From UHGV virus genome UHGV-0121358: DNA of 54,213 bases. One strand, written 5' to 3'. The notes beneath the pieces were generated by a model. That model made no database searches and was not told the DNA's origin. It saw nothing but the letters and a program-made list of their open reading frames with translations. Origin of the DNA: a virus. Positions 1,603-48,362 of the stretch are shown here, piece by piece. Position numbers and translations under genes: made by a program. How positions within the stretch are numbered: position 1 is the stretch's first letter; the number at the start of each line of letters is the position of its first letter.

Positions 1603-4600
1603 TTATGCTGTAGTTGATGCGCTGAATGATCCTGTTCCTCTTGATACTAGCATTGTTGGAGAATACAAAGCTGTACAATATGAGTAGCCTTCTGATGCTG
1701 ATGTTTGTGGGCAATATATTTGCCCGGTAATACTTGATGCCGTTAAACCAGAAAAAGCGCATTGCACTGTTAATGTGCATCCACCATAAGGAACGTAATA
1801 TTGAATTGTTTTACTTTTACCTCCGCAACTAAACGTTACGTTATAAGTTGATCTATATTCACCAGATGCTAATGAAATCGTCGCCATAAGCATAACTGAT
1901 TTCCTCAATGGACTATCCGTGCTGTCGTTATATGTGATGGTTGCGTTATAACTTCCGTTATACCCAAGCACTCGATCTGGACCAACCCCCATGTTAGCAA
2001 CATCACCAACAAACGTTTTAGCTTCCACCGTTCCTGTGAATTTACCGCTACTTGCATACACCTTGCCCCTTACAGTTACGTTGTTGAACTCCGCGTTGCC
2101 ATTTTTATCAATCATCCACCCGGCAGATCCTGATGCGTAGTTTGTTGACTGTATTCGCTGTGCAATCTTAGCGGTAGTGATAGCTGCATCTGCAATTTTA
2201 GCCGTCCCTATTGATGCGTCTTTAATAAACGCTTCGCGCACATACATTGCGCCATTGGTGACATAGAAAGGCGATTGATATGTGCCGTTTGCCGCAGTCA
2301 TTAACACGAAGCGATCAACCAGGAAAATACACTGCGATTGAAAGTTAGTCCCGTCACCAGTAAGGCCAAGCGACATACCTGTTGCGTATGTTCTGCCGTT
2401 GCTATCTGTTGCCAGCTTGATTGAATACGACGCATCTACATTACCTTTAAAGTCGGTAAGCGCTTTCGATGTTGTCTCTATAGCGGTTTTGTTCCCGTTA
2501 ACGGTCACTGTCAACTGATCAATTTTGCTTGATAATGCTTCGTCAGCCGTTGCCATAGCCTGCGACCATTCCGTGATGCTTGAATTTACATCTTCGAAAG
2601 ACGCCGAGATCTGGACAAATTTTTCAGCGCTTGATGCCTCGTGATTTGCGAGTGCCGTTGAGACATCCATTATTTTTGCTGAAATGTTTTCATTAATATT
2701 TGCCTCAAGCGATGCTATAGCCTCCGCGCGGGCCTGGGTTTCGTCTGCTATTGCTGTATCGATCCTTGCTATTTCCGCTTTTGTTTTTATCTGGCCTTTC
2801 CTGTATTTCGCCTCAATAACAGTGCCCATCTTGCTTTGCGCTATTGAGTTGTTGATAAGTGCAATCGAGGCGTTTTGCAGACTTGCTTTCGCCTGTTCTA
2901 TCTTGTCGCTGTTTTTATCAACATCACTTTCAACAGAACCAAGCTCCGCGCTGATGCCTGATATTGCCTGTGCGCGGGCGCTTGATTCATCGGCAATCGC
3001 CTGATCCAAGCGTTTAACGCTGGCGTTCGTGCTATTTTCAAGCGTTGTTAAATCAGCCTTAACATCCGTTATTGCGTCGCTTCTTGCCTGCGTTTCATCT
3101 GATATTGCTTTATCAAGGCGGGAAACGCTGGCGTCAGTTTTCTTATCAAGATTGCTTATTGCTGCGTTTACACCGTTAATAGCTTCAGCGCGGGCGCTGG
3201 CCTCGTCAGCAACTGCGCGTTGCACGTTAGAGATTTGGCCTTTAAGGTTGGAATCCATCGTATTCATTTCTGCCGTGATGGTTTCCAGTGATTCCGCAGT
3301 CGCTTTTTTCTCTTCAGCGATAACGTTGTCAATACGGTCAATTTCCGCCTTCGTCTCTGTTCTACCTTTTTTGTACTGAGCGGTAAGAGTTACACGGGTG
3401 TTAGTCTGTGCAAGTGAGTTATTAATAAGAGCAATAGAAGCGTTTTGCAGGCTTGCTCTTGCTTGCGCCAGTTCGCTGTCAACTTTTTCGCTAGATACCT
3501 CCAGCGAGTCTATTCTAGACTCATGCTGTCCAATATCATCGGCGTTTTCCTTAACCTTTTTATAAAGATCTTCCGTTTCTTTTTTAAGTGTATCCGTGTC
3601 AGCTTTTATTGACCCTGTTTCTGTGATTAGGTTGTCAGTAGCAGTTTTAAGGTCATTCGTAGCGCTTTCGATAAGATCGGTGCGGTCGCCAAGATCCTTA
3701 ATATCACTTACCATTCCCTTAAATTGCTCTGAATTCATCACGTCTTTGGTGACGTAATCGGTGATTTCATCAAAGTTTTCTGTTGGCTTGCCTGATGCTT
3801 CAACGAAGTCTGACACACCAAAGGCATTACGCGTGCGCACATAAACGTAATAGGTGTGCCCCGTGTTCATGCCGCCAAAAGTCCACTGATGACCACGCCC
3901 GGTATATTGTGCTTTAGTGGTTACTGATGCCGGATCGGTGATTTGTGTTTCACCTGAGTAATAAAACTCATAACTAGTGTCAGTGGTAAGCGTTGTTCTG
4001 CTGATCGGGTAAACTGTAGCCTGAAATACACCGGGAACCCAGTTAACTCCTACCGGGGCCGCTGGTGCGCCAATAACCAGATCCACAATGCTTTCCGCAC
4101 CCTTCATGCCCGTGTCATTTCTGCCACGAATGCCTAGTGAGTAGTTGCCAGCATCAATACCATAAAAATCATAACTGTAATTCGTAGTTTCGTAGCTTTT
4201 AACTACGGCCCCCTCTGAATTATATACGCGGATTTCAAATGTCAGGCGATGAGTTGTCGTCAGTGTTTCCCATGTTGCGCGGCATTGAACTGTTTCAGAT
4301 CCAATATTTAACACCTTCAGGTTTTCAATGTTCGGTACGCGGAAGTGATTAAGCGTGTCGTTGTTGACCTCAAAGATTGCGCCATTATCTACTACAGCCT
4401 GTTTGTGCGGGTCATGCTGTGATGCCTCTACAGTGTACACGCTATTATTTTCTGTTTCTGCTACGCTGGTGATTCGACACAATACGGGTTTTGCTGCGTT
4501 AGTTGACACAGCAAATACAGTACCGTTACGAATCCATGCCGGGGCGGATGCAAGGGTAATTTTATTTCCGCTAACTCCGGTGATCTGGTGTTTTTTAAAT

Positions 4601-6183
4601 TTGCCATCACTATCAAGCAGGCTGATGGTGTCACCAGGGGCGATATATTCAGAATCAACTTTATCGACCGTGATAACCCTGCCATTGTTTGCCACGATGC
4701 GACCGCCTAAACGAGCGCCTGCGCGGTTATTGTCGAGTATCTCGATAATATCACCAGGGGTGAAGTGAATTGCGTCACGGGCCATTTTAAACGTGAATTT
4801 TGACGGCTCGCGTTTTGCTGTTTCTATCAGCCATTTGCCAGCGCGGTACGCTTGCCCGCGTGACGTGCAACCGAAAGCCTCTAGCGTGGTTTCGTTATAA
4901 CCATCGCGGGCGATCAGTTCATCATCTGCCACATATTCTTTTGATTGCTCCCAGCCGTTTTCTGGGTCAGTCCATGATACGATCACGGCGTTGTAACATT
5001 CTGCAAGCGGAAGGCTTGAGCGAGTAAACGCGCCATCAACGACGTTTGCATTTGTGATGGTGGCAATTGGATCTTGTGGCGCATCAATCATCACGGTAAG
5101 GCGTTGCCCGTCCCATAACGCGATGCCACGGAACATACCTGCGATGTTATCCAGTAGGTCGCGGGCGCTCATTTGCTCCGTAATGTAAGCGTTGAGAGTC
5201 ATGCGAGGTTCAAGGCCACCATAGCCATCATCAACCAACTGATCGCAGTATTGAGAAAGCACATACAAAGCGCCATCATCAACATCAATGTAACCAGCAT
5301 GTCTAGCAAGCCCAAAGCGCTCGTTTTTAACCAGATACCGGAAAATCCACGCAGGGTTATTGGTGTACGCTTTTTTGAATCCACCAAGCCATAAACCCGA
5401 ATATGTGCGCGTTTCTGTGTTGTAGTTATCAGGAACATCAACAATCAGGCCGCGAAGGTGATAGGTACGGGTGGGCGTATCAGTATACTGATCATGGTCA
5501 ATTACAGCGCCAGCCACGGCGGTATGAGGATAAGACAGGTTATCATCTATTATTTCGCTGTAACTACTCCACCGCGTATCATTCCGCAATAGATCGCTGT
5601 TGCTGTCTGCTGTTATGCGACGAACGCGAATATCAAACGGCTTTTCATCAGGCGCGTTGATAACGTGAGCTTCCAGGTATTCACCACTCTGTTTACCAGG
5701 CCCGATTGTAATGTATTTAACAGGCGACCACGTCGATGATAATGATGGCTTAACATCAACCATTAACACAACGGATGTATTGTATTGATTGCCCTTATCA
5801 TCTGACTGAACGAGAGCATCAACACCAAGATTCAACCTGACGCGGGTAACGTTTGGATCTGAAACAGTCCTGATTATTGGCGTGTCGTGAGTTACCTTTG
5901 CGTTGACGATAACGGTTGATTCGATGGCATTAAAACCATTAATCGGCGATTGGTCAGCCGTGCCGTTGCGCCAGGCTATACTAATCCCCGGGATTGATGT
6001 ATTCCCGTTTGCGTCAGTAACAGGTGTGTCATTAAGCATCACATCATTTAGTGGCGCCTTCTGGTTTACCGGACCGTATATCGGCCCTTCGCTGAGAATA
6101 TCTAAAACACGATAAAACTGTTTATGATACAGGTTATCGTTTAATAATACTGGTGTCTTGGCTTTGCCGCCGCCGCTACTCAT
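1603..6183 (-). CDS. J: host specificity / central tail fiber protein J (tip attachment), 1526 aa with expanded coiled-coil middle region
   Basis: Track ORF. N-terminus and several blocks (GPIYGPV, DTPIIRT, WSSYSEIID, RTYHLRGLIVDVPDNYNTETRTYSGLW, FGCTSRGQA, HFTPGDIIEILD) match my recollection of lambda gpJ; sits after I/K/L as in lambda. Confidence 0.9.
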   Translation of the reverse strand: MSSGGGKAKTPVLLNDNLYHKQFYRVLDILSEGPIYGPVNQKAPLNDVMLNDTPVTDANGNTSIPGISIAWRNGTADQSPINGFNAIESTVIVNAKVTHDTPIIRTVSDPNVTRVRLNLGVDALVQSDDKGNQYNTSVVLMVDVKPSLSSTWSPVKYITIGPGKQSGEYLEAHVINAPDEKPFDIRVRRITADSNSDLLRNDTRWSSYSEIIDDNLSYPHTAVAGAVIDHDQYTDTPTRTYHLRGLIVDVPDNYNTETRTYSGLWLGGFKKAYTNNPAWIFRYLVKNERFGLARHAGYIDVDDGALYVLSQYCDQLVDDGYGGLEPRMTLNAYITEQMSARDLLDNIAGMFRGIALWDGQRLTVMIDAPQDPIATITNANVVDGAFTRSSLPLAECYNAVIVSWTDPENGWEQSKEYVADDELIARDGYNETTLEAFGCTSRGQAYRAGKWLIETAKREPSKFTFKMARDAIHFTPGDIIEILDNNRAGARLGGRIVANNGRVITVDKVDSEYIAPGDTISLLDSDGKFKKHQITGVSGNKITLASAPAWIRNGTVFAVSTNAAKPVLCRITSVAETENNSVYTVEASQHDPHKQAVVDNGAIFEVNNDTLNHFRVPNIENLKVLNIGSETVQCRATWETLTTTHRLTFEIRVYNSEGAVVKSYETTNYSYDFYGIDAGNYSLGIRGRNDTGMKGAESIVDLVIGAPAAPVGVNWVPGVFQATVYPISRTTLTTDTSYEFYYSGETQITDPASVTTKAQYTGRGHQWTFGGMNTGHTYYVYVRTRNAFGVSDFVEASGKPTENFDEITDYVTKDVMNSEQFKGMVSDIKDLGDRTDLIESATNDLKTATDNLITETGSIKADTDTLKKETEDLYKKVKENADDIGQHESRIDSLEVSSEKVDSELAQARASLQNASIALINNSLAQTNTRVTLTAQYKKGRTETKAEIDRIDNVIAEEKKATAESLETITAEMNTMDSNLKGQISNVQRAVADEASARAEAINGVNAAISNLDKKTDASVSRLDKAISDETQARSDAITDVKADLTTLENSTNASVKRLDQAIADESSARAQAISGISAELGSVESDVDKNSDKIEQAKASLQNASIALINNSIAQSKMGTVIEAKYRKGQIKTKAEIARIDTAIADETQARAEAIASLEANINENISAKIMDVSTALANHEASSAEKFVQISASFEDVNSSITEWSQAMATADEALSSKIDQLTVTVNGNKTAIETTSKALTDFKGNVDASYSIKLATDSNGRTYATGMSLGLTGDGTNFQSQCIFLVDRFVLMTAANGTYQSPFYVTNGAMYVREAFIKDASIGTAKIADAAITTAKIAQRIQSTNYASGSAGWMIDKNGNAEFNNVTVRGKVYASSGKFTGTVEAKTFVGDVANMGVGPDRVLGYNGSYNATITYNDSTDSPLRKSVMLMATISLASGEYRSTYNVTFSCGGKSKTIQYYVPYGGCTLTVQCAFSGLTASSITGQIYCPQTSASEGYSYCTALYSPTMLVSRGTGSFSASTTA

Positions 6184-41267: not shown

Positions 41268-41558
41268 TTAATGGTAGCGGACTTTATCCAGGGGTTTTTC
41301 CCCTAAATGGCGTGGTTGCGTTGCGTGGTAGTAGCTGCCGCTTTCATTTTCCGTATACCATTTTACTGATCCTTTGCGACGTTCTTTAATGCTATTTGGT
41401 TTGCATCTTTCCTCGTTTGCAAATCGAATAGCTTTATCCACATTGTCTGTTTTATTGATTGCAGGTGATGATTTTCTTTCGTTTTCTCTTTTTATCCTTC
41501 TGCGTTCCCTGGCATTCATTTTGCTATCACATTTACCATATATAATTGTAACGCTCAT
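41268..41558 (-). CDS. N: N-like transcription antiterminator (P22 gene 24-like)
   Basis: Track ORF; GGAG SD; N-terminus MSVTIIYGK...NARERRRIKRE with arginine-rich motif resembles P22 gp24 (MTVITYGK...AKTRRHERRR); nut-like site upstream. Confidence 0.7.
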   Translation of the reverse strand: MSVTIIYGKCDSKMNARERRRIKRENERKSSPAINKTDNVDKAIRFANEERCKPNSIKERRKGSVKWYTENESGSYYHATQPRHLGEKPLDKVRYH

Positions 41559-41614
41559 AATCTGATCTCCGTATATCCTTGATGATACTTAATAAAAAAT
41601 CATCTTCGTTAATT

Positions 41615-41652
41615 GCCGCACTTCCAGCGGCTGACCAGATTGTTAATGAGCG
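41615..41652 (-). promoter_or_regulatory. putative nutL (boxA-like CGCTCATTAA plus boxB-like hairpin)
   Basis: On minus-strand transcript: CGCTCATTAA (41652-41643), 11-nt spacer, hairpin GCCGC-UGGAAGU-GCGGC (41631-41615), between pL candidate and N start. Confidence 0.4.
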
Positions 41653-42058: not shown

Positions 42059-42706
42059 TTATGGCAGGTTTACGATCTTCGCATCAACCACCACGCCTAT
42101 AATTTTTGATTCTGGATTCATAGGGATTGGCGGATACAGCGGATTGAGCGAACGTAAAAGCCTTTGACCTCCATCAATAATCAACTGTTTAAACGTCGGT
42201 ATCTGCCCTTCCTCAAGCTGGGCTATAACCAGTTTGCCGTCAATAGCTGGCGCGTGCGGGTCCACAAGTATCATCGTCCCCGCCGGGATGCTCAACCCCT
42301 GCGGCGCGTTCATTGATTCACCTTTGGCAACCAGCCAGTAACTGTCATCTGAACAAATAACGCTAGTCGTAACGTGTCGTAATGCTGAACGCCTTGCGTC
42401 ATCCATATTGTTTACTGTGTCCTTCCAGTCAATAACCGGGTAACTACCTAAATCACGCGGCGGCACGGCCTGAAGTGTATTAGAAACAGAATCATCAATG
42501 ACCATGCCATCATGTGTAACAGTAAACTGCCGACGACCAAGCTCGCGCATAATCCGCGCAATATCTTCAAGATTTGGCTCTCGGCGACCGTTCAGCCAGT
42601 GTGACAGGCCGCCTTTAGTTATCCCCATACGATCCGCGAGCGAATCCTGGCTCATGCCCTGCGCCCGCATGAGCTGCTTTGCTAAGTCATACCATTTTGT
42701 TTTCAT
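42059..42706 (-). CDS. cI: cI-type repressor (HTH_XRE N-terminus, LexA/S24 peptidase-like C-terminus)
   Basis: Track ORF; N-terminal HTH (QDSLADRMGITKGGLSHWLNG), C-terminal S24-like region with conserved Ser (GESM) and Lys (PTFKQL); divergent from replication operon. Confidence 0.85.
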   Translation of the reverse strand: MKTKWYDLAKQLMRAQGMSQDSLADRMGITKGGLSHWLNGRREPNLEDIARIMRELGRRQFTVTHDGMVIDDSVSNTLQAVPPRDLGSYPVIDWKDTVNNMDDARRSALRHVTTSVICSDDSYWLVAKGESMNAPQGLSIPAGTMILVDPHAPAIDGKLVIAQLEEGQIPTFKQLIIDGGQRLLRSLNPLYPPIPMNPESKIIGVVVDAKIVNLP

Positions 42707-42820: not shown

Positions 42821-43011
42821 AAGACGCAAGGAAAAAGATAACGGAAGGCACAAAAAGGCACTTACCTTATGCTCTTTAAAAATCCGGTGTCGCTGCGAAG
42901 CGAAAAACAAATATCACGCAACGGCGGGATCTGTTGAGCGGTCAGTCACTGCTATCTAATGCTAATGGGATGCCCGCCCGCGCGTTCACTCTAACCATAG
43001 GAGAAAATGCG

Positions 43012-43269
43012 ATGAGTATAAACATGATTAGTAAAGCATGGAACGTAAAACTTAATAGCCCGATTCAAAAACTTGTCTTAATGGCTCTGGCTGAAAAGGC
43101 AGATAACAAAGGACGGGTACATGATGCATCACGCAAAGAAGTAGCCGCAATGTGTGAACTTCCTGTTCATACGGTACATGATGCCTTCGCCGCGTTAATG
43201 GATAAAGGATTTGTTTGTCGTCTTGATGCATTCAGTGATGTCTATGTAGTGATGTTGCCGGAGGGATGA
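43012..43269 (+). CDS. HTH DNA-binding protein (first gene of rightward operon)
   Basis: Track ORF 42934..43269 truncated to ATG at 43012 with AGGAG SD; KLVLMALAEKADNKGRV...SRKEVAAMCELPVHTVHDAFAALMDKGFV resembles HTH domains of replication initiator N-termini. Confidence 0.55.
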   Translation: MSINMISKAWNVKLNSPIQKLVLMALAEKADNKGRVHDASRKEVAAMCELPVHTVHDAFAALMDKGFVCRLDAFSDVYVVMLPEG

Positions 43270-43272
43270 TCT

Positions 43273-44325
43273 ATGAAGTGGTTTAAGCATGACAGCGATG
43301 CGAACCGCGATGAAAAACTTCAAAACGTTTTGTTAGATTATGGCCTGGAAGGGTACGGGCTTTATTGGTATTGCCTCGAACTAATAACTTATGACGTAGA
43401 TCAGCACAATCTGACTTTTGACCTACGACATGACGCGAGAATCATTGCGCGAAACGTCGGATCGACTGAAAAACGTATAGAAGAAATGATGAAATACTTC
43501 ATCGAAATTGGTTTGTTTGAATGTTCTCAAGGCCACATAACTTGTTTAAAGTTATTGAAAAGGCTTGACCAATCAATGACTTCTAAAAGCGCGTACAGGG
43601 CCGCCATAAACACAGCTAAGGAGCAATTAAAATTAGAAAAGTTAATCAATCCAACACAAAAAGGTCATGATAGGGTCATGACCGGGTCAGGAAAGGGTCA
43701 TGAATTAGAATTAGAAGTAGAAGAAGAAAGAGAAAAAGATATATACACTTCGTGTATTGTCGAAAATGAACAAAAAATGGTCAATCATGATGGCGTAAAC
43801 GAAGCGGCGTTGCGTTGCCTGGCCTTCTACAACGACAAGGCAGGATGCAAATGTCGTGATGCGAAGCCATTCATCGAACTACTGACAGAAACAAAAACAC
43901 GTAAAGCGTATACGGAGGATGAGATCACATTAGTGATTGAGTGGGCTTTAACGCAATGGCGTAGCCGTGGTGGAACACCTAAGCCTATCAATATTTGCCG
44001 GGTAACTAAATTTGATGGGTATCTGACTGATGCTGAACAATGGCGCAAACTGTCAGCCACTGCAAACGCTGCCGACGTGGTGGAAGCATTTAACAGCACG
44101 TTTGACGGCCTGTTACCACCTGTCGAACTGGATCGGGATCTTGAACGCAAGATCTATGCGTTCACTGACTACCTGAAAGACAAAAGCATTAACGGCTTTG
44201 TCGCCTACTTCGAAACATTCAAAAACACGGCTTCAGATTTTTACTTCGGCAATGGCTTCACAGCGACACTTGATTTCCTGCTTAAACCAAAAACGCTACG
44301 CGACACACGCGCAGGCGCTCTTTGA
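43273..44325 (+). CDS. replisome organizer / replication initiation protein (DUF4373-like N-terminus)
   Basis: Track ORF; N-terminus MKWFKHDSDANRDEKL...YGLEGYGLYWYCLEL matches the Lin1244/DUF4373 pattern as I recall it; followed by helicase gene. Confidence 0.7.
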   Translation: MKWFKHDSDANRDEKLQNVLLDYGLEGYGLYWYCLELITYDVDQHNLTFDLRHDARIIARNVGSTEKRIEEMMKYFIEIGLFECSQGHITCLKLLKRLDQSMTSKSAYRAAINTAKEQLKLEKLINPTQKGHDRVMTGSGKGHELELEVEEEREKDIYTSCIVENEQKMVNHDGVNEAALRCLAFYNDKAGCKCRDAKPFIELLTETKTRKAYTEDEITLVIEWALTQWRSRGGTPKPINICRVTKFDGYLTDAEQWRKLSATANAADVVEAFNSTFDGLLPPVELDRDLERKIYAFTDYLKDKSINGFVAYFETFKNTASDFYFGNGFTATLDFLLKPKTLRDTRAGAL

Positions 44326-44458: not shown

Positions 44459-44560
44459 ATGGACGGTAAACACGTTTTCGCCCTGGCCTTTGCCATCGCT
44501 GCTGCAATCGCTGTTAACGTCGCTTTGTTCGGCGGTTTGTTCCTTCTTATCAATCCATAA
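44459..44560 (+). CDS. possible 33-aa hydrophobic mini-protein (MDGKHVFALAFAIAAAIAVNVALFGGLFLLINP)
   Basis: Own translation; GAGAGGA SD 8 nt upstream. Confidence 0.3.
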   Translation: MDGKHVFALAFAIAAAIAVNVALFGGLFLLINP

Positions 44561-44713
44561 CCTTCATACCAGCCTGTAAATCAAAAATTAGCCACCTGAG
44601 AGCGCCTCTGACGCAATAAGACACTGCAACCTGTGCAAACGGGTTACGCGGTGGGATTTTTGCGTTGTAGCACGTCTGAGGCGTTATATATAAAATTAAG
44701 AAAAGAGGTACAT

Positions 44714-45769
44714 ATGATTGCCACTTATCATGTGAAACTAAATTGTAAGGACACGCAATTACTATCTGTTAATAATCTTGTTTCTGAACTTGAAATCGAT
44801 AGGCTTAAATCATTTGTTAAATACTCTGATCTTTACGGATTTGAGGAATACAAGGATTTTATTATTGATGGTGATGATGTGTATATCACACCTATAACGT
44901 TTATTAGATTCGTTACACCTGGTAAATATAGACATTATGAATATAATGAAAATTGGGTTAAGCCAGTTATTGAATCTTGTGGATTAGTTGATTTACAAGA
45001 TGTGTTTAATAAATATTCAAATAATACCAGAAAAGATAGTCCTTATGCTTATAATTATGTTTTATGGTGTAACAACTATGTTGAAACTAGTGATACTCCC
45101 GGGCGATGCTCTGTGTATGTGTCAAAGGAAGATGCTGAAAAGTATAAAAAATGGTTGTTCGTTACTCGCGGAGTATCAATAGAAAAACTATGGGTAAGGT
45201 TGTTTCATTCAAGCGATATTGCAGATCCAGATACGTTTTTAAATGAACATCTTAATAATGATGAGTTTACCATTGATTTAAATATTGAATATTTTACAGT
45301 TAAAACAAATTATGGATATGAAAGATATATTAGCGATAAGATAGCGGAAAAGTATCATACATGGGGTCAAAATAAAGGTCTTAGTAATAATTTTGAATGC
45401 GGTAATTATAACGACATAGAAAACTTTATTGAATTAAAAAGCGACAAGAATGTAATTGAGGAAATAAAAAGGGAATGTGACGAGAAATTATCAGAAATGA
45501 GTTATAATTGTAAAAATATGATTAGGAAGCGTTATGAACATGCTGGATTAACTATGTACGAAAAACTAAAAGGAGTTAAATTAATAAGGCAATATCCTGT
45601 TAATGTTGCTGGCAACAAGTATTTTATTGATGGCTACGATCTTGTGAATAATATTGCTGTAGAAATTGATGAATCACATCACAAACGGCAAGCAAAAAGC
45701 GATGCGATAAGACAAAAACGCATTGAGGATTATTTGGGGTGCAAGTTTTTTCGTTGTGCTATATCCTGA
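44714..45769 (+). CDS. AT-rich moron protein with C-terminal Vsr/DUF559-like PD-(D/E)xK endonuclease motif
   Basis: Track ORF 44633..45769 truncated to ATG at 44714 with AAGAGGTA SD; strongly AT-rich codons; C-terminus YFIDGYDLVNNIAVEIDESHH...D..R...I...LG..FFR. Confidence 0.6.
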   Translation: MIATYHVKLNCKDTQLLSVNNLVSELEIDRLKSFVKYSDLYGFEEYKDFIIDGDDVYITPITFIRFVTPGKYRHYEYNENWVKPVIESCGLVDLQDVFNKYSNNTRKDSPYAYNYVLWCNNYVETSDTPGRCSVYVSKEDAEKYKKWLFVTRGVSIEKLWVRLFHSSDIADPDTFLNEHLNNDEFTIDLNIEYFTVKTNYGYERYISDKIAEKYHTWGQNKGLSNNFECGNYNDIENFIELKSDKNVIEEIKRECDEKLSEMSYNCKNMIRKRYEHAGLTMYEKLKGVKLIRQYPVNVAGNKYFIDGYDLVNNIAVEIDESHHKRQAKSDAIRQKRIEDYLGCKFFRCAIS

Positions 45770-45803
45770 TGTATACAAAATGTAAACCTGAGGAATTAAC
45801 ATT

Positions 45804-46922
45804 ATGTCGCAAAGAAAAATCAGCGATGAGCAATTGATCGCTGAATATAACAACGGTTTAACGTACAAGCAGATTGCTGAAAAATATGGCATGTCAAAAC
45901 GCAATGTCGAGCGCCTGGGCGCAAAACTGGCGAAACGTGGTTTATTATCAACACGCCGCGCTCCTGGTTTTGGCGTCAATGGCGAGTCGTTGCTAGTCGA
46001 TAAGAACGGCAATGTTATCATGCGCTGGATTAAAACAGCCCGTGACCGCGAAGAAATGGAACAGCTAATGGAAGCGGCCCGCGACGCTTTCACTGATGAA
46101 ATACCACGCGCGGAGGCTGTGCCAGTGCCTGAAATTGATTTTCAAAAAAGCCTGGCACTTTATCCGGTGTTTGATCTGCATATCGGGGCGCTTGCTCATA
46201 AAGCTGAATGCGGTGAGAGCTACGATACTGGGATCGCTGAGCGCGTGTTGAATGACTTCTTTGACTACGCTGTTGGCGCTGCTCCGATGTCTGAAAAAGC
46301 TGTTTTACTTCTCGGCGGTGATGTGCTTCACACTGACGGCCTGTTACCAGTGACGCCATCAAGTAATCACGTTTTAGATTGTGATTCACGCTACGCAAAA
46401 CTGGTTTATGTGGCGATCCGGTCGGTCCGGCGTGCGGTCGGGAAGATGTTACTAAATCATAAGGATGTCGAGATCCAGGTATTATCCGGTAATCACGACC
46501 AATCAGGTATGATCTGGCTACGTGCTGCGCTTGCGGCTTTTTACGAAGATGAGCCGCGCGTGACTGTTGACGTGTCACCTGCCATTGTCCACCACACACA
46601 GTATGGCAAAACATTCCTTGCTTACCACCACGGGCACACTATCAAAAAGCCGGAAAATTTATTGTCTGCTTGCGTAGCTGACTGGCGGGAGGATTTCGGA
46701 AGGTCTGTGGCTGTTTACGCTCACACTGGACATCTGCACCATCAATCAGTTGTTGAAACATCACTTGGAATAGTTGAGCACCACGGCACATTAGCTGGCA
46801 AAGACGCATATTCAACTAATGGCGGCTGGCGGTCGCGGCGTCTGGCAGCGGTGATTATTTACAGCCCGGATCATGGGGAAATTGGGCGCTTTGTTTATTA
46901 CCCTGAATATTCCATTTTGTAA
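45804..46922 (+). CDS. HTH-containing calcineurin-like metallophosphoesterase
   Basis: Track ORF; GAGGAA SD; N-terminal HTH (LTYKQIAEKYGMSKRNVERLGAKL); phosphoesterase motifs DLH, GGDVLH, GNHD, GH-H. Confidence 0.65.
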   Translation: MSQRKISDEQLIAEYNNGLTYKQIAEKYGMSKRNVERLGAKLAKRGLLSTRRAPGFGVNGESLLVDKNGNVIMRWIKTARDREEMEQLMEAARDAFTDEIPRAEAVPVPEIDFQKSLALYPVFDLHIGALAHKAECGESYDTGIAERVLNDFFDYAVGAAPMSEKAVLLLGGDVLHTDGLLPVTPSSNHVLDCDSRYAKLVYVAIRSVRRAVGKMLLNHKDVEIQVLSGNHDQSGMIWLRAALAAFYEDEPRVTVDVSPAIVHHTQYGKTFLAYHHGHTIKKPENLLSACVADWREDFGRSVAVYAHTGHLHHQSVVETSLGIVEHHGTLAGKDAYSTNGGWRSRRLAAVIIYSPDHGEIGRFVYYPEYSIL

Positions 46923-46940: not shown

Positions 46941-48362
46941 ATGGTAACTGAGCAAATAAACTCACTACGGCAGGAACGTGAAGCGTCAGTTATCGGCGGG
47001 CTACTGTTAGGTGGCCTTACTCCTAACGCGCAAGATGTTCTCGCCACACTTGATCCTGAAGTGTTCACGATCCCGCTTTATAAACGTGCGTTTGAAGTTA
47101 TCCGGGCGCAAGCCAGAAACAGAAATCTTATCGACGCGTTATTGGTTGGCGATGAGATTGGCAATGAAAACTTTGTACCGCTAATGCAAACGGCACGATC
47201 GTGCCCTTCTGCTGCCAACCTGAAAGGATATGCGCAACTACTACAGGAAGAACACCAGCGTCGGCAAATGCTGGAACTAATGGAAGACATTCGCTACAAG
47301 CTGGAAACAGGGACGCTTGAAGTCGTCAGGGAGACGATGAAAGATTTTGATTCCCGGTATTCAAAATTAAAGGTAACAAAAGATCAAATTATCCCGGTGC
47401 TGTTGCGCGATGCGGTCCAGGAATACACGGAAGTGTTAAGTAAACGCATGGAGTGTGGCGTGAACTCTGACAACATCAAAACAGGGATTGACCCACTCGA
47501 CGAAATGTTAGGCGGCATTAACGCTACTGATCTGGTGCTTATCGCCGGACGCCCAGGGTCTGGTAAATCGGCGTTGGCGTTGGCAATTGCCCGCGCGGCG
47601 GCTGAACGCCCATACCCTGGAGGCGAAGGTCAGCGGGTCGGCGTTTTGCTGTTCACGCTTGAAATGTCGCTCGATCAGATGACTGAACGCGCTATCGCTG
47701 GCGCAGGGAACTTGTCAACGGATTGCTTACGTAATCCGGTAAAACTGGATGACGAAGGATGGGCGCACGTTGCCCAGGGAATGAGCGCACTTGCTGATCT
47801 CGATGTGTGGATTGTTGATGCATCACAGTTAACTGTCGAGGAAATACGCGCCACAACTGAACGAATGAAGCAGGATTATCCCAACCTGGGTATGGTAATG
47901 ATTGACTACATCGGGTTAATGAAGCTGGCTAAGGCAGAACGTCACGATCTCGCTGTAGGGCAATTGTCGTGGTCATTGAAAATGATGGCGAAAGAATTGC
48001 GCGTACCAGTGGCGGCGCTGGCGCAATTATCCCGCCGCGTCGAGGAACGACCGAACAAGCGACCGAACAATTCTGATCTGCGCGATTCCGGCAATCTTGA
48101 ACAGGACGCAGACCGGATCATCATGGTATACCGCGACGGCTACTACAACGAACAATCTGTTGCACGCGAATACATGGAGATTATCGTTTCAAAAAACCGT
48201 CACGGAAAAACCGGGACTGTTTACCAGCGTTTTGACGACAACGGCAACATATTACCGTGTGACCAGGCCCGCGCGGCGTCAGCTTGCATCCAGTCAATGC
48301 AACAACGTCCGGCGGTAAGCCGATTCTCGCCACGAAACAACCAGAATAAAGCATCTTTTTAA
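46941..48362 (+). CDS. replicative DNA helicase (DnaB family)
   Basis: Track ORF; GGAGG SD; Walker A GRPGSGKS, Walker B-like VMIDYIGLM, and C-terminal motifs typical of DnaB-type helicases. Confidence 0.9.
   Translation: MVTEQINSLRQEREASVIGGLLLGGLTPNAQDVLATLDPEVFTIPLYKRAFEVIRAQARNRNLIDALLVGDEIGNENFVPLMQTARSCPSAANLKGYAQLLQEEHQRRQMLELMEDIRYKLETGTLEVVRETMKDFDSRYSKLKVTKDQIIPVLLRDAVQEYTEVLSKRMECGVNSDNIKTGIDPLDEMLGGINATDLVLIAGRPGSGKSALALAIARAAAERPYPGGEGQRVGVLLFTLEMSLDQMTERAIAGAGNLSTDCLRNPVKLDDEGWAHVAQGMSALADLDVWIVDASQLTVEEIRATTERMKQDYPNLGMVMIDYIGLMKLAKAERHDLAVGQLSWSLKMMAKELRVPVAALAQLSRRVEERPNKRPNNSDLRDSGNLEQDADRIIMVYRDGYYNEQSVAREYMEIIVSKNRHGKTGTVYQRFDDNGNILPCDQARAASACIQSMQQRPAVSRFSPRNNQNKASF

Follow-up and report, generated by a model that had tools for sequence, protein, structure and literature searches.

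The 54,213-nucleotide (nt) virus genome UHGV-0121358, the whole of which we call the window, carries in its replication module an AT-rich gene for a 351-residue protein that ends in a predicted nuclease domain. We found that this gene fills a slot that is empty or differently occupied in related Escherichia coli phages and prophages, and that its nuclease domain keeps a conserved active site. We therefore propose that the gene is a free-standing homing-type endonuclease, or a close derivative of one that acts in phage-phage competition. We regard this reading as an even bet, and homing fits best among the three functions (defence, abortive infection and homing) that had been offered by a first-pass annotation made from the sequence alone.

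The same annotation had pointed to a Vsr/DUF559-like motif at the C terminus, and the motif stands as it was quoted. Pfam DUF559 (PF04480) matches the whole protein at 22.2 bits and the domain alone at 25.7 bits, above the gathering score of 20.6 and over approximately positions 28-87 of the 109 in the profile. By this score the protein is formally a member of DUF559, and NCBI automatically names the identical protein "DUF559 domain-containing protein." AlphaFold models the nuclease domain confidently, with a predicted local distance difference test (pLDDT) score of 82, as a helix, three strands, a helix and a final strand. This is a restriction-endonuclease-like fold that resembles the DUF559 structure 3HRL. 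The top Foldseek matches are PvuRts1I and AbaSI (4oky and 4par), with probabilities of 0.97-0.99 and no E-value as low as 0.001.

The active site of the domain is intact. We built a family from 11 sequences that share the nuclease module, all well diverged and drawn from phages of Escherichia and Vibrio; DUF559 matches all 11 and REase_MTES_1575 matches nine. Seventeen positions are invariant across the family: E283, L290, Y294, D306, G307, Y308, N313, E317, D319, E320, H323, R333, I337, G342, C343, F345, and R347. Among these are the active-site residues E283, D306, E317, D319, E320, and H323, which correspond in a hidden Markov model (HMM) alignment to AbaSI E26, D61, E72, D74, E75, and H78, respectively. 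Mutagenesis of AbaSI showed that D61, E75, and H78 are essential, that mutation of D74 causes partial loss, and that H77 is dispensable (PMC4081097); E26 and E72 are conserved residues of AbaSI. The only variable active-site position in the family, 322, is the equivalent of this dispensable H77. Because the pattern of conservation follows the AbaSI mutagenesis, it argues strongly that the C-terminal domain, as predicted from sequence, is catalytically active. A further essential AbaSI residue, K23 (PMC4081097), has no evident equivalent in the window protein. AbaSI dimerises through N-terminal helices (PMC4081097), and in the window protein a long helix that includes the invariant E283 may serve in dimerisation or as a linker.

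The gene sits in a variable cassette with sharp boundaries. When 10 loci were aligned, similarity in the left flank was lost at approximately 44676-44682 (...TTTTTGCGTTGTAGCACGT...) and returned at 45772. In four relatives without the insert (phage mEp010 and E. coli STEC308, LSU61, and PAR), the two flanks come to within about 10 nt of each other, with an identical junction sequence in all four. We then took a census of the slot in 35 complete E. coli genomes with a matching replication module. The window-type gene was present in two, a "zinc-ribbon" CapR/T5orf172 gene in 12, BRO/KilAC/Ant genes in eight and Rha genes in four, and the slot was empty in nine. Counting the empty state, this polymorphic slot has at least five.

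The cassette and the backbone around it do not share a history. The backbone nearest to the window, that of strain FAH (94.7% identity), holds another cassette, which encodes a 307-residue protein (L006 1899-2822) that combines a MUG113/T5orf172 domain with DUF4379/CapR zinc fingers of the treble-clef type, three in number. The backbone of strain M15 is less similar (92.1%), yet it holds the same cassette as the window. Therefore, the histories of cassette and backbone are uncoupled. Moreover, the exonuclease gene of M15 lies at a synonymous divergence (dS) of 0.71 from that of the window, and the genes on either side of it lie at 0.13-0.24. Because the exonuclease gene is so much more diverged than its neighbours, the comparison points to a recombination breakpoint exactly at the right boundary of the cassette. 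M15 also has about 130 nt of extra sequence between the cassette and the exonuclease gene (L001 ~5460-5636), with the motif TAATGTATAC duplicated at the junction. The empty alleles share a distinct variant of the flank, which linkage explains as well as co-conversion does.

Independent criteria identify the slot as a homing-endonuclease site, namely its CapR/T5orf172 occupant and an HNH-AP2 gene nearby. The combination of CapR and T5orf172 is an architecture of free-standing homing endonuclease genes (HEGs) that lie beside essential genes and bracket "HEG islands" (PMC10448857, Barth et al.). Such genes mark boundaries of genetic exchange, and their DNA-binding modules are shuffled (PMC10448857). 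The HNH-AP2 gene belongs to mEp010, one gene further along the same operon (L004 4479-5069). It encodes a homing endonuclease with HNH_3 and AP2 domains, lies between the exonuclease gene and dnaB and overlaps both; it is missing at the matching 18-nt junction of the window (46922/46941). The window gene itself has the operational features of an HEG. It occurs sporadically at a fixed intergenic site between genes of essential type, relatives carry an empty allele, and its nuclease domain has catalytic residues that are intact and under selection.

The same nuclease module occurs in sister genes with other N termini. These include mEp044_12 and a gene of Vibrio phage 355E48.1 (both Bro-N), genes of Krischvirus pEJ01 and Vibrio phage 1.206.O (both Rha), and the E. 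coli phage protein P0026 (KilA-N-like). Like the window gene, the sisters are small accessory genes in variable phage slots, and those with Bro-N, Rha or KilA-N, classic DNA-binding domains of phages, lie at positions known for endonucleases; their nuclease cores are 43-68% identical to that of the window protein, with the same invariant residues and with an E-x-x-A-L-x-x-x-E-Q-L helix before the core. They differ in the rest of the protein: the sisters have 145-232 residues with recognisable DNA-binding domains of about 70-100 residues, whereas the window protein has about 270 residues without a recognisable domain. In mEp044, the very slot studied here holds a 203-residue protein that joins Bro-N to the nuclease, followed by a Rha-KilAC gene. 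In the T4-like Krischvirus pEJ01, a 145-residue Rha-nuclease gene follows directly after gene 32, and pEJ01 alone among 64 related records has it. The same position holds a 460-residue "endonuclease" with CapR/DUF4379 zinc fingers in Phi1 (L017 1292-2674), another annotated "endonuclease" in MIZ4 and a short hypothetical gene in G2494; on its upstream side, gene 32 is closely preceded by an HNH-AP2 gene. The Vibrio phage versions have 151-178 residues, with Rha, Bro-N or unassigned N termini.

E. coli entries of 78 residues that are annotated as stand-alone DUF559 proteins are truncated calls of a 232-residue open reading frame (ORF); the proteins concerned are P0008, P0009, and P0026, and P0026 is the 232-residue form. 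The N terminus of this ORF matches KilA-N at E 5.6e-5 and 23.4 bits, against a cutoff of 23.8. The ORF sits between the late antiterminator region and the holin of its phage, in which HNH_3 genes also occur, both within the lysis cassette and ahead of the terminase. Near the Vibrio sisters (L013, 1.161.O 267-1157; L014, 355E48.1 3452-4231), a 140-kb phage has an annotated Cas1 beside a large P-loop NTPase, and in another phage the annotation calls nrdD a fragment (part 1), as if the gene were split or interrupted.

How long has the gene been in this group of phages? Its G+C content is 0.308, against a mean of 0.462 (standard deviation 0.029) across the other 1056-nt segments (z = -5.2), and the next-lowest segment outside the gene, at about 24491, has 0.385. 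Segments of 300 nt give 0.27-0.34 inside the gene and 0.43-0.52 in its flanks, and the 1-kb bin with the lowest G+C in the 54-kb window is the one that holds the gene. G+C at third codon positions (GC3) is likewise low, at 0.233 against 0.433, 0.475, and 0.523 in three neighbouring replication genes. The sliding-window and GC3 calculations bear out what the first-pass annotation had judged by eye, that the gene is much richer in AT than its neighbours, and they mark its composition as foreign. That it was recently acquired, as the annotation went on to suggest, is doubtful, for alleles in the same slot differ by a dS of about 1.3. The value against the Ecol_244 allele is about 1.27, and because this exceeds the 0.55-0.78 of the flanking genes, the gene has long been resident in this phage group and has kept its AT-richness. 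Two smaller patches of low G+C (0.36) lie at 41350-41649, near the immunity region, and at 43450-43749, inside the replication initiator gene.

Purifying selection acts along the full length of the gene, on both halves. The whole-gene ratio of nonsynonymous to synonymous divergence (dN/dS) is 0.13 against a 92%-identical allele (L001) and 0.10 against an 80%-identical allele (L002). For the same two alleles, the ratio is 0.13 and 0.11 in the N-terminal 275 codons, and 0.13 and 0.07 in the C-terminal 76 codons. The identical protein is found in 127 contigs and 248 index blocks of public databases, only in E. coli and always in the same slot. The gene has its own Shine-Dalgarno sequence, as had been noted: GAGG at 44705-44708, 5 nt 5' of the ATG, and both the sequence and the start codon are kept in two further alleles. 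An alternative GTG start at 44633 would give 378 residues. We consider the ATG to be the right start because the extended frame crosses the hairpin and flank upstream, which are non-coding and conserved in relatives.

The setting of the gene suggests that it is expressed during lytic growth. It lies on the same strand as the replication genes, 34 nt separate its end from the start of the next one, a replication gene that looks essential, and we found no terminator between the stop at 45769 and the start at 45804. Upstream of the gene and outside the cassette is a hairpin of 13 stem pairs that is kept in 10/10 loci, with one compensatory change from C-G to A-U, and that is followed by UUUUU; the empty-slot alleles share a distinct variant of its loop, ACCCTTACAAGTGGGT. 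Judging from its sequence, the hairpin is probably an intrinsic terminator within the early-right operon, so placed that expression of the exonuclease and DnaB genes downstream would require antitermination. Because a terminator is absent after the gene, a same-strand gene follows 34 nt on and the conserved hairpin lies upstream, we predict transcription as part of the early-right operon, and we infer that the gene is co-expressed with the replication genes in lytic growth and silent in the lysogen.

The first-pass annotation had instead seen a moron with a promoter-like element of its own. The hexamers are there (TTGTAG at 44665-44670 and TATAAA at 44689-44694, with an 18-nt spacer), but a promoter belonging to the gene found no support. 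A consensus scan, which a weak promoter could escape, called no + strand promoter upstream, with 13 promoter-like sites against 11.3 expected from shuffles, and TTGTAG falls in the flank that is common to all relatives, including those with an empty slot. With no promoter called, no terminator after the gene and a replication gene following so closely on the same strand, the idea of a moron with its own promoter and terminator is not supported.

The N-terminal part of the protein, presumed to recognise the target, is an orphan. The first reading had seen no recognisable motif there, and no profile library gave it a family: Pfam, PHROG, NCBIfam, and PADLOC had no match in this region, and Pfam had none in residues 1-262 even at E<=10. 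A word-indexed search of 5.8 billion proteins returned only two full-length clusters, both from E. coli. When residues 1-280 were compared exhaustively by phmmer with 1.84 billion representative proteins, the only results were the cluster to which the protein belongs and a weak match to a repeat protein of 1045 residues (P0006, E 7e-4, residues 52-85), which we judged spurious. In a tblastn search of 50,697 phage records, matches were confined to the C-terminal 80-95 residues, and a PDB sequence search with the N-terminal region gave nothing meaningful. AlphaFold 2, working from a shallow alignment, left residues 1-269 unmodelled (pLDDT <50).

Two hints may eventually connect this region to known modules, and we treat both as leads only. 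First, there is a weak indication of two repeats of about 75 residues, at residues 76-152 and 153-226 (z 2.4, hhalign probability 16-25%). The putative repeats align over 59 columns (hhalign 16-21%), and each ends in Y-[VI]-S-x3-AEKY-x2-W. Second, residues 71-149 align to the region that follows the KilA-N-like domain in P0026, the nearest relative by nuclease module, with BLASTP (E 0.036) and hhalign (E 0.048) giving the same alignment. A homologue search with the N terminus of P0026 returned its own cluster only. It is conceivable, though we think it improbable, that the N-terminal region recognises DNA through a new fold and that the protein, with this fold and a PvuRts1I/AbaSI-like cleavage module in the reverse order, founds an undescribed class of phage-borne nucleases. 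The fold might consist of highly diverged KilA-N-like modules in tandem, or it might read DNA modification. If it is real, site- or modification-directed nucleases of this kind could serve in phage-phage or prophage-phage conflict, and their specificity could be useful as a tool.

Altogether, we propose the following mechanism. The cassette occupies an intergenic position in the early-right (replication) operon of a temperate coliphage of the mEpimmI group, and would be transcribed with the replication genes in lytic growth when an N-like antiterminator lets transcription pass the hairpin. The orphan N-terminal region would bind a specific DNA target, and the nuclease domains would pair through the long helix that precedes them. 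The cut would fall in a related genome that lacks the cassette, either a co-infecting phage or a resident prophage, probably in or near the adjacent replication genes. Repair by recombination from the cassette-bearing genome would then copy in the cassette together with neighbouring markers, so that the gene would spread and competitor alleles would be excluded.

Several points weigh against this proposal. The target site, the cleavage and the over-transmission are all putative, the N-terminal region has no recognisable DNA-binding domain, and the timing of expression is deduced from the order of the genes. Wherever the exact gene occurs, it lies in one slot of one phage type, so recent movement is undemonstrated, and its diverged alleles number only three, too few to reveal co-conversion tracts. 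Because the slot also holds genes without a nuclease domain (Bro-N/Rha and KilAC), its polymorphism could reflect ordinary recombination between conserved flanks. Finally, the most similar characterised active sites, those of AbaSI and PvuRts1I (24-28% identity), belong to defence enzymes.

This last point leads to an alternative that we consider unlikely, in which the gene is a prophage defence nuclease that protects the lysogen. The protein would act in abortive infection, or as a modification-dependent restriction enzyme resembling those of type IV. Its N-terminal region would be the sensor, of a modified base or of infection itself, and its PvuRts1I/AbaSI-like domain would cleave DNA of the invader or of the cell. 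The Foldseek ranking agrees with this view, as does the active-site string EIDESHH, which is nearly identical to the EVDEGHH of AbaSI. The gene is accessory and foreign in composition, and its orphan region leaves room for a reader domain. However, the sole match in the defence databases, to the type IV PvuRts1I-family model mREase_II of PADLOC (E 2.3e-7), is limited to about 65 residues of the nuclease core (positions 37-101 of 294), and no SRA-like or other reader domain was detected. Pfam PvuRts1I-like_N reaches only 13.2-17.4 bits against a cutoff of 27, and the order of the domains is reversed relative to PvuRts1I and AbaSI. Moreover, the gene lies within a lytic replication operon, and since we detected neither a promoter nor a terminator for the gene alone, it is expected to be silent in the lysogen; a module that is fused to Bro-N, Rha, and KilA-N domains and is present in strictly lytic phages does not fit such a role. 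The defence and abortive-infection functions of the first-pass annotation thus gained no positive support, the lone database match being the nuclease core of a type IV model.

A second alternative, distinctly unlikely in our view, is that the gene derives from an HEG, no longer homes and has become a weapon against a specific competitor such as a satellite, a plasmid or a rival prophage, in the manner of Odn (Gp88) of ICP1. Its N-terminal region would have been acquired for that target. There are precedents for the recombination of HEG nuclease modules with new DNA-binding regions (PMC8263062, PMC10448857), and here too the N-terminal region is unique to the gene and the nuclease module is shared. 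One stable slot across hundreds of assemblies and strong purifying selection also accord with a retained weapon. However, no candidate target element is known, and the search of 1.84 billion representatives linked the N-terminal region to no protein from any such element, replication initiators included. The gene is also rare among relatives (two of the 35), and a useful weapon might be commoner.

It is highly improbable that the protein is a regulator or antirepressor-like DNA-binding protein whose nuclease-like domain serves only DNA binding or dimerisation, a domestication of the type known for CapR, a HEG-derived repressor (PMC8096241): "antirepressor-type" Bro-N/Rha/KilAC genes do occupy the slot in 12/35 relatives, but catalytic residues that are invariant across 11 diverged members are unexpected in a non-catalytic scaffold, and hhalign of the N-terminal region against Bro-N, Rha, and KilAC gave probabilities of <1%.

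The phage around the cassette is a recognisable temperate coliphage (Table 1). Its nearest records are mEp021-like "mEpimmI" coliphages and matching E. coli prophages. Members of the mEpimmI group are temperate but non-lambdoid, depend on Nus and have Gp17 as their N-like antiterminator (PMC11893012). The gene lies where it had been placed: the replication initiator precedes it, and the phosphoesterase and helicase genes follow.

Table 1. Features of the nuclease gene, its cassette and its surroundings (window coordinates unless another record is named).
Feature	Position	Strand	Remarks
LexA/cI-type repressor	42059-42706	-	
Small winged-helix gene	42934-43269	+	
Lin1244-type replication initiator	43273-44325	+	
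33-residue hydrophobic mini-protein gene	44459-44560	+	backbone, outside the cassette; kept in 9/9 compared loci
Hairpin (44622-44653) and U-tract (44657-44661), likely intrinsic terminator	44622-44661	+	outside the cassette
Variable cassette, ~1.09 kb, polymorphic slot	44676-45771	+	10-locus alignment and empty-site junctions
Nuclease-type gene, 351 residues	44714-45769	+	ATG start, TGA stop; ORF listing and Shine-Dalgarno check
Orphan N-terminal region, residues 1-270, presumed target-recognition part	44714-45523	+	no family match
Long alpha-helix, residues 245-286, with invariant E283; candidate dimerisation/linker helix	45446-45571	+	AlphaFold 2 models
Minimal Vsr/DUF559-type PD-(D/E)xK nuclease core, residues 283-349	45560-45760	+	predicted topology alpha-beta-beta-beta-alpha-beta
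Conserved right flank TATACAAAATGTAAACCTGAGGAA	45772-45803	+	carries the ribosome-binding site of the next gene; alignment and empty-site junctions
Helix-turn-helix (HTH) and metallophosphoesterase/exonuclease gene (phrog_704)	45804-46922	+	
DnaB helicase	46941-48362	+	
KilA-N-like and nuclease ORF, 232 residues	L025 4539-5237 (E. coli contig DAPHJQ010000028.1)		68% identity in the nuclease module

A mini-ORF upstream of the slot, MDGKHVFALAFAIAAAIAVNVALFGGLFLLINP, had been described as preceding the gene within the same AT-rich island. The ORF exists, and it has the look of a genuine gene for a small membrane protein, placed after the replication initiator and before the slot. It has a strong ribosome-binding site, it is annotated as a gene in several assemblies, and its changes among the compared mEpimmI-type loci, the empty-slot mEp010 included, are mainly synonymous (dN/dS 0-0.21); it matches no PHROG, Pfam or NCBIfam family. 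The link to the nuclease gene does not hold, as the mini-ORF belongs to the backbone whatever the slot contains. We likewise rejected it as a toxin-antitoxin or abortive-infection partner, since it is kept in every compared relative regardless of slot content. In E. coli PAR, a 77-residue MarR-like gene (L029 644-877) takes its region, 5' of the hairpin, and the nuclease slot is empty; KKa019 apparently has the same replacement. The mini-ORF region is a second variable spot of the same intergenic region in PAR and apparently in KKa019. An antisense ORF of 139 residues (45674-46093, -) that reaches from the 3' part of the nuclease gene into the 5' part of the exonuclease gene is unsupported and probably spurious, and an Rfam scan of the whole window found no non-coding RNA family.

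Why would such a gene matter? If our proposal is right, the gene joins the free-standing endonuclease genes that shape the boundaries of recombination in phage replication modules, and the very large and functionally blank DUF559 family gains a definite function in phages that can be tested. A new module for DNA recognition may also be hidden in the orphan N-terminal region. The system is convenient, as mEpimmI phages can be cultivated in E. coli K-12 and natural variants of the slot are at hand: mEp010 is empty, mEp044 has a sister nuclease and mEp554 has non-nuclease genes, so that existing strains suffice for studies of homing, marker exclusion and target mapping.

The window protein can be set against several known systems. 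It resembles PvuRts1I and AbaSI in the aligned active-site residues from D306 to H323. However, it has no SRA-like reader, its nuclease domain is C-terminal where theirs is N-terminal, its core is shorter (about 70 residues) and lacks an evident K23, and it is a phage gene in a lytic operon rather than a host defence gene. With no reader domain and a score below the cutoff, it is, by its sequence, not a member of the PvuRts1I family. Typical DUF559 proteins are bacterial and either stand alone or are fused to other domains, whereas the window protein matches only part of the profile. To our knowledge, no function has been established for the DUF559 family. Compared with the E. coli Vsr mismatch endonuclease, the window protein has no Pfam Vsr match, no zinc site and only 8% identity, and the residues that recognise the T:G mismatch and intercalate into DNA are missing.

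A closer functional parallel may be I-Bth0305I, a proven EDxHD homing endonuclease with an N-terminal DNA-binding region and a C-terminal Vsr-like domain of about 100 residues (PMC3239194, PMC2677866). The window protein also has a C-terminal Vsr-like domain; its N-terminal part, in which no NUMOD or HTH motif was detected, is a putative DNA-binding region. I-Bth0305I residues E170, D196, N208, H213, and D222 are spaced similarly to E283, D306, and H323 (invariant) and D330 (conserved at >=90%) of the window family, a putative equivalence that rests on spacing and fold. The EDxHD family profile left the window protein unmatched at E<=10. Unlike EDxHD enzymes of the I-Bth0305I and Hef type, the window protein has no NUMOD motif and no associated intron or intein, and it has an ExDE cluster of the DUF559/AbaSI type. 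It therefore lies outside the EDxHD family by sequence, though it probably works like EDxHD enzymes.

The HEGs with CapR/DUF4379 and T5orf172 domains are the neighbours of the window gene in a literal sense. In 12 of the 35 prophages they fill the very slot studied here, in Krischvirus they are found at its counterpart next to gene 32, and they too combine a modular DNA-binding part with a small nuclease, lie beside essential replication genes and shuffle domains. However, the nuclease folds are unrelated, theirs belonging to the GIY-YIG superfamily and the one described here to PD-(D/E)xK, and the DNA-binding parts are unrelated as well. If our proposal is correct, a minimal DUF559/PvuRts1I-like PD-(D/E)xK core would be a third nuclease chemistry at such sites, besides the HNH and T5orf172/GIY-YIG types.

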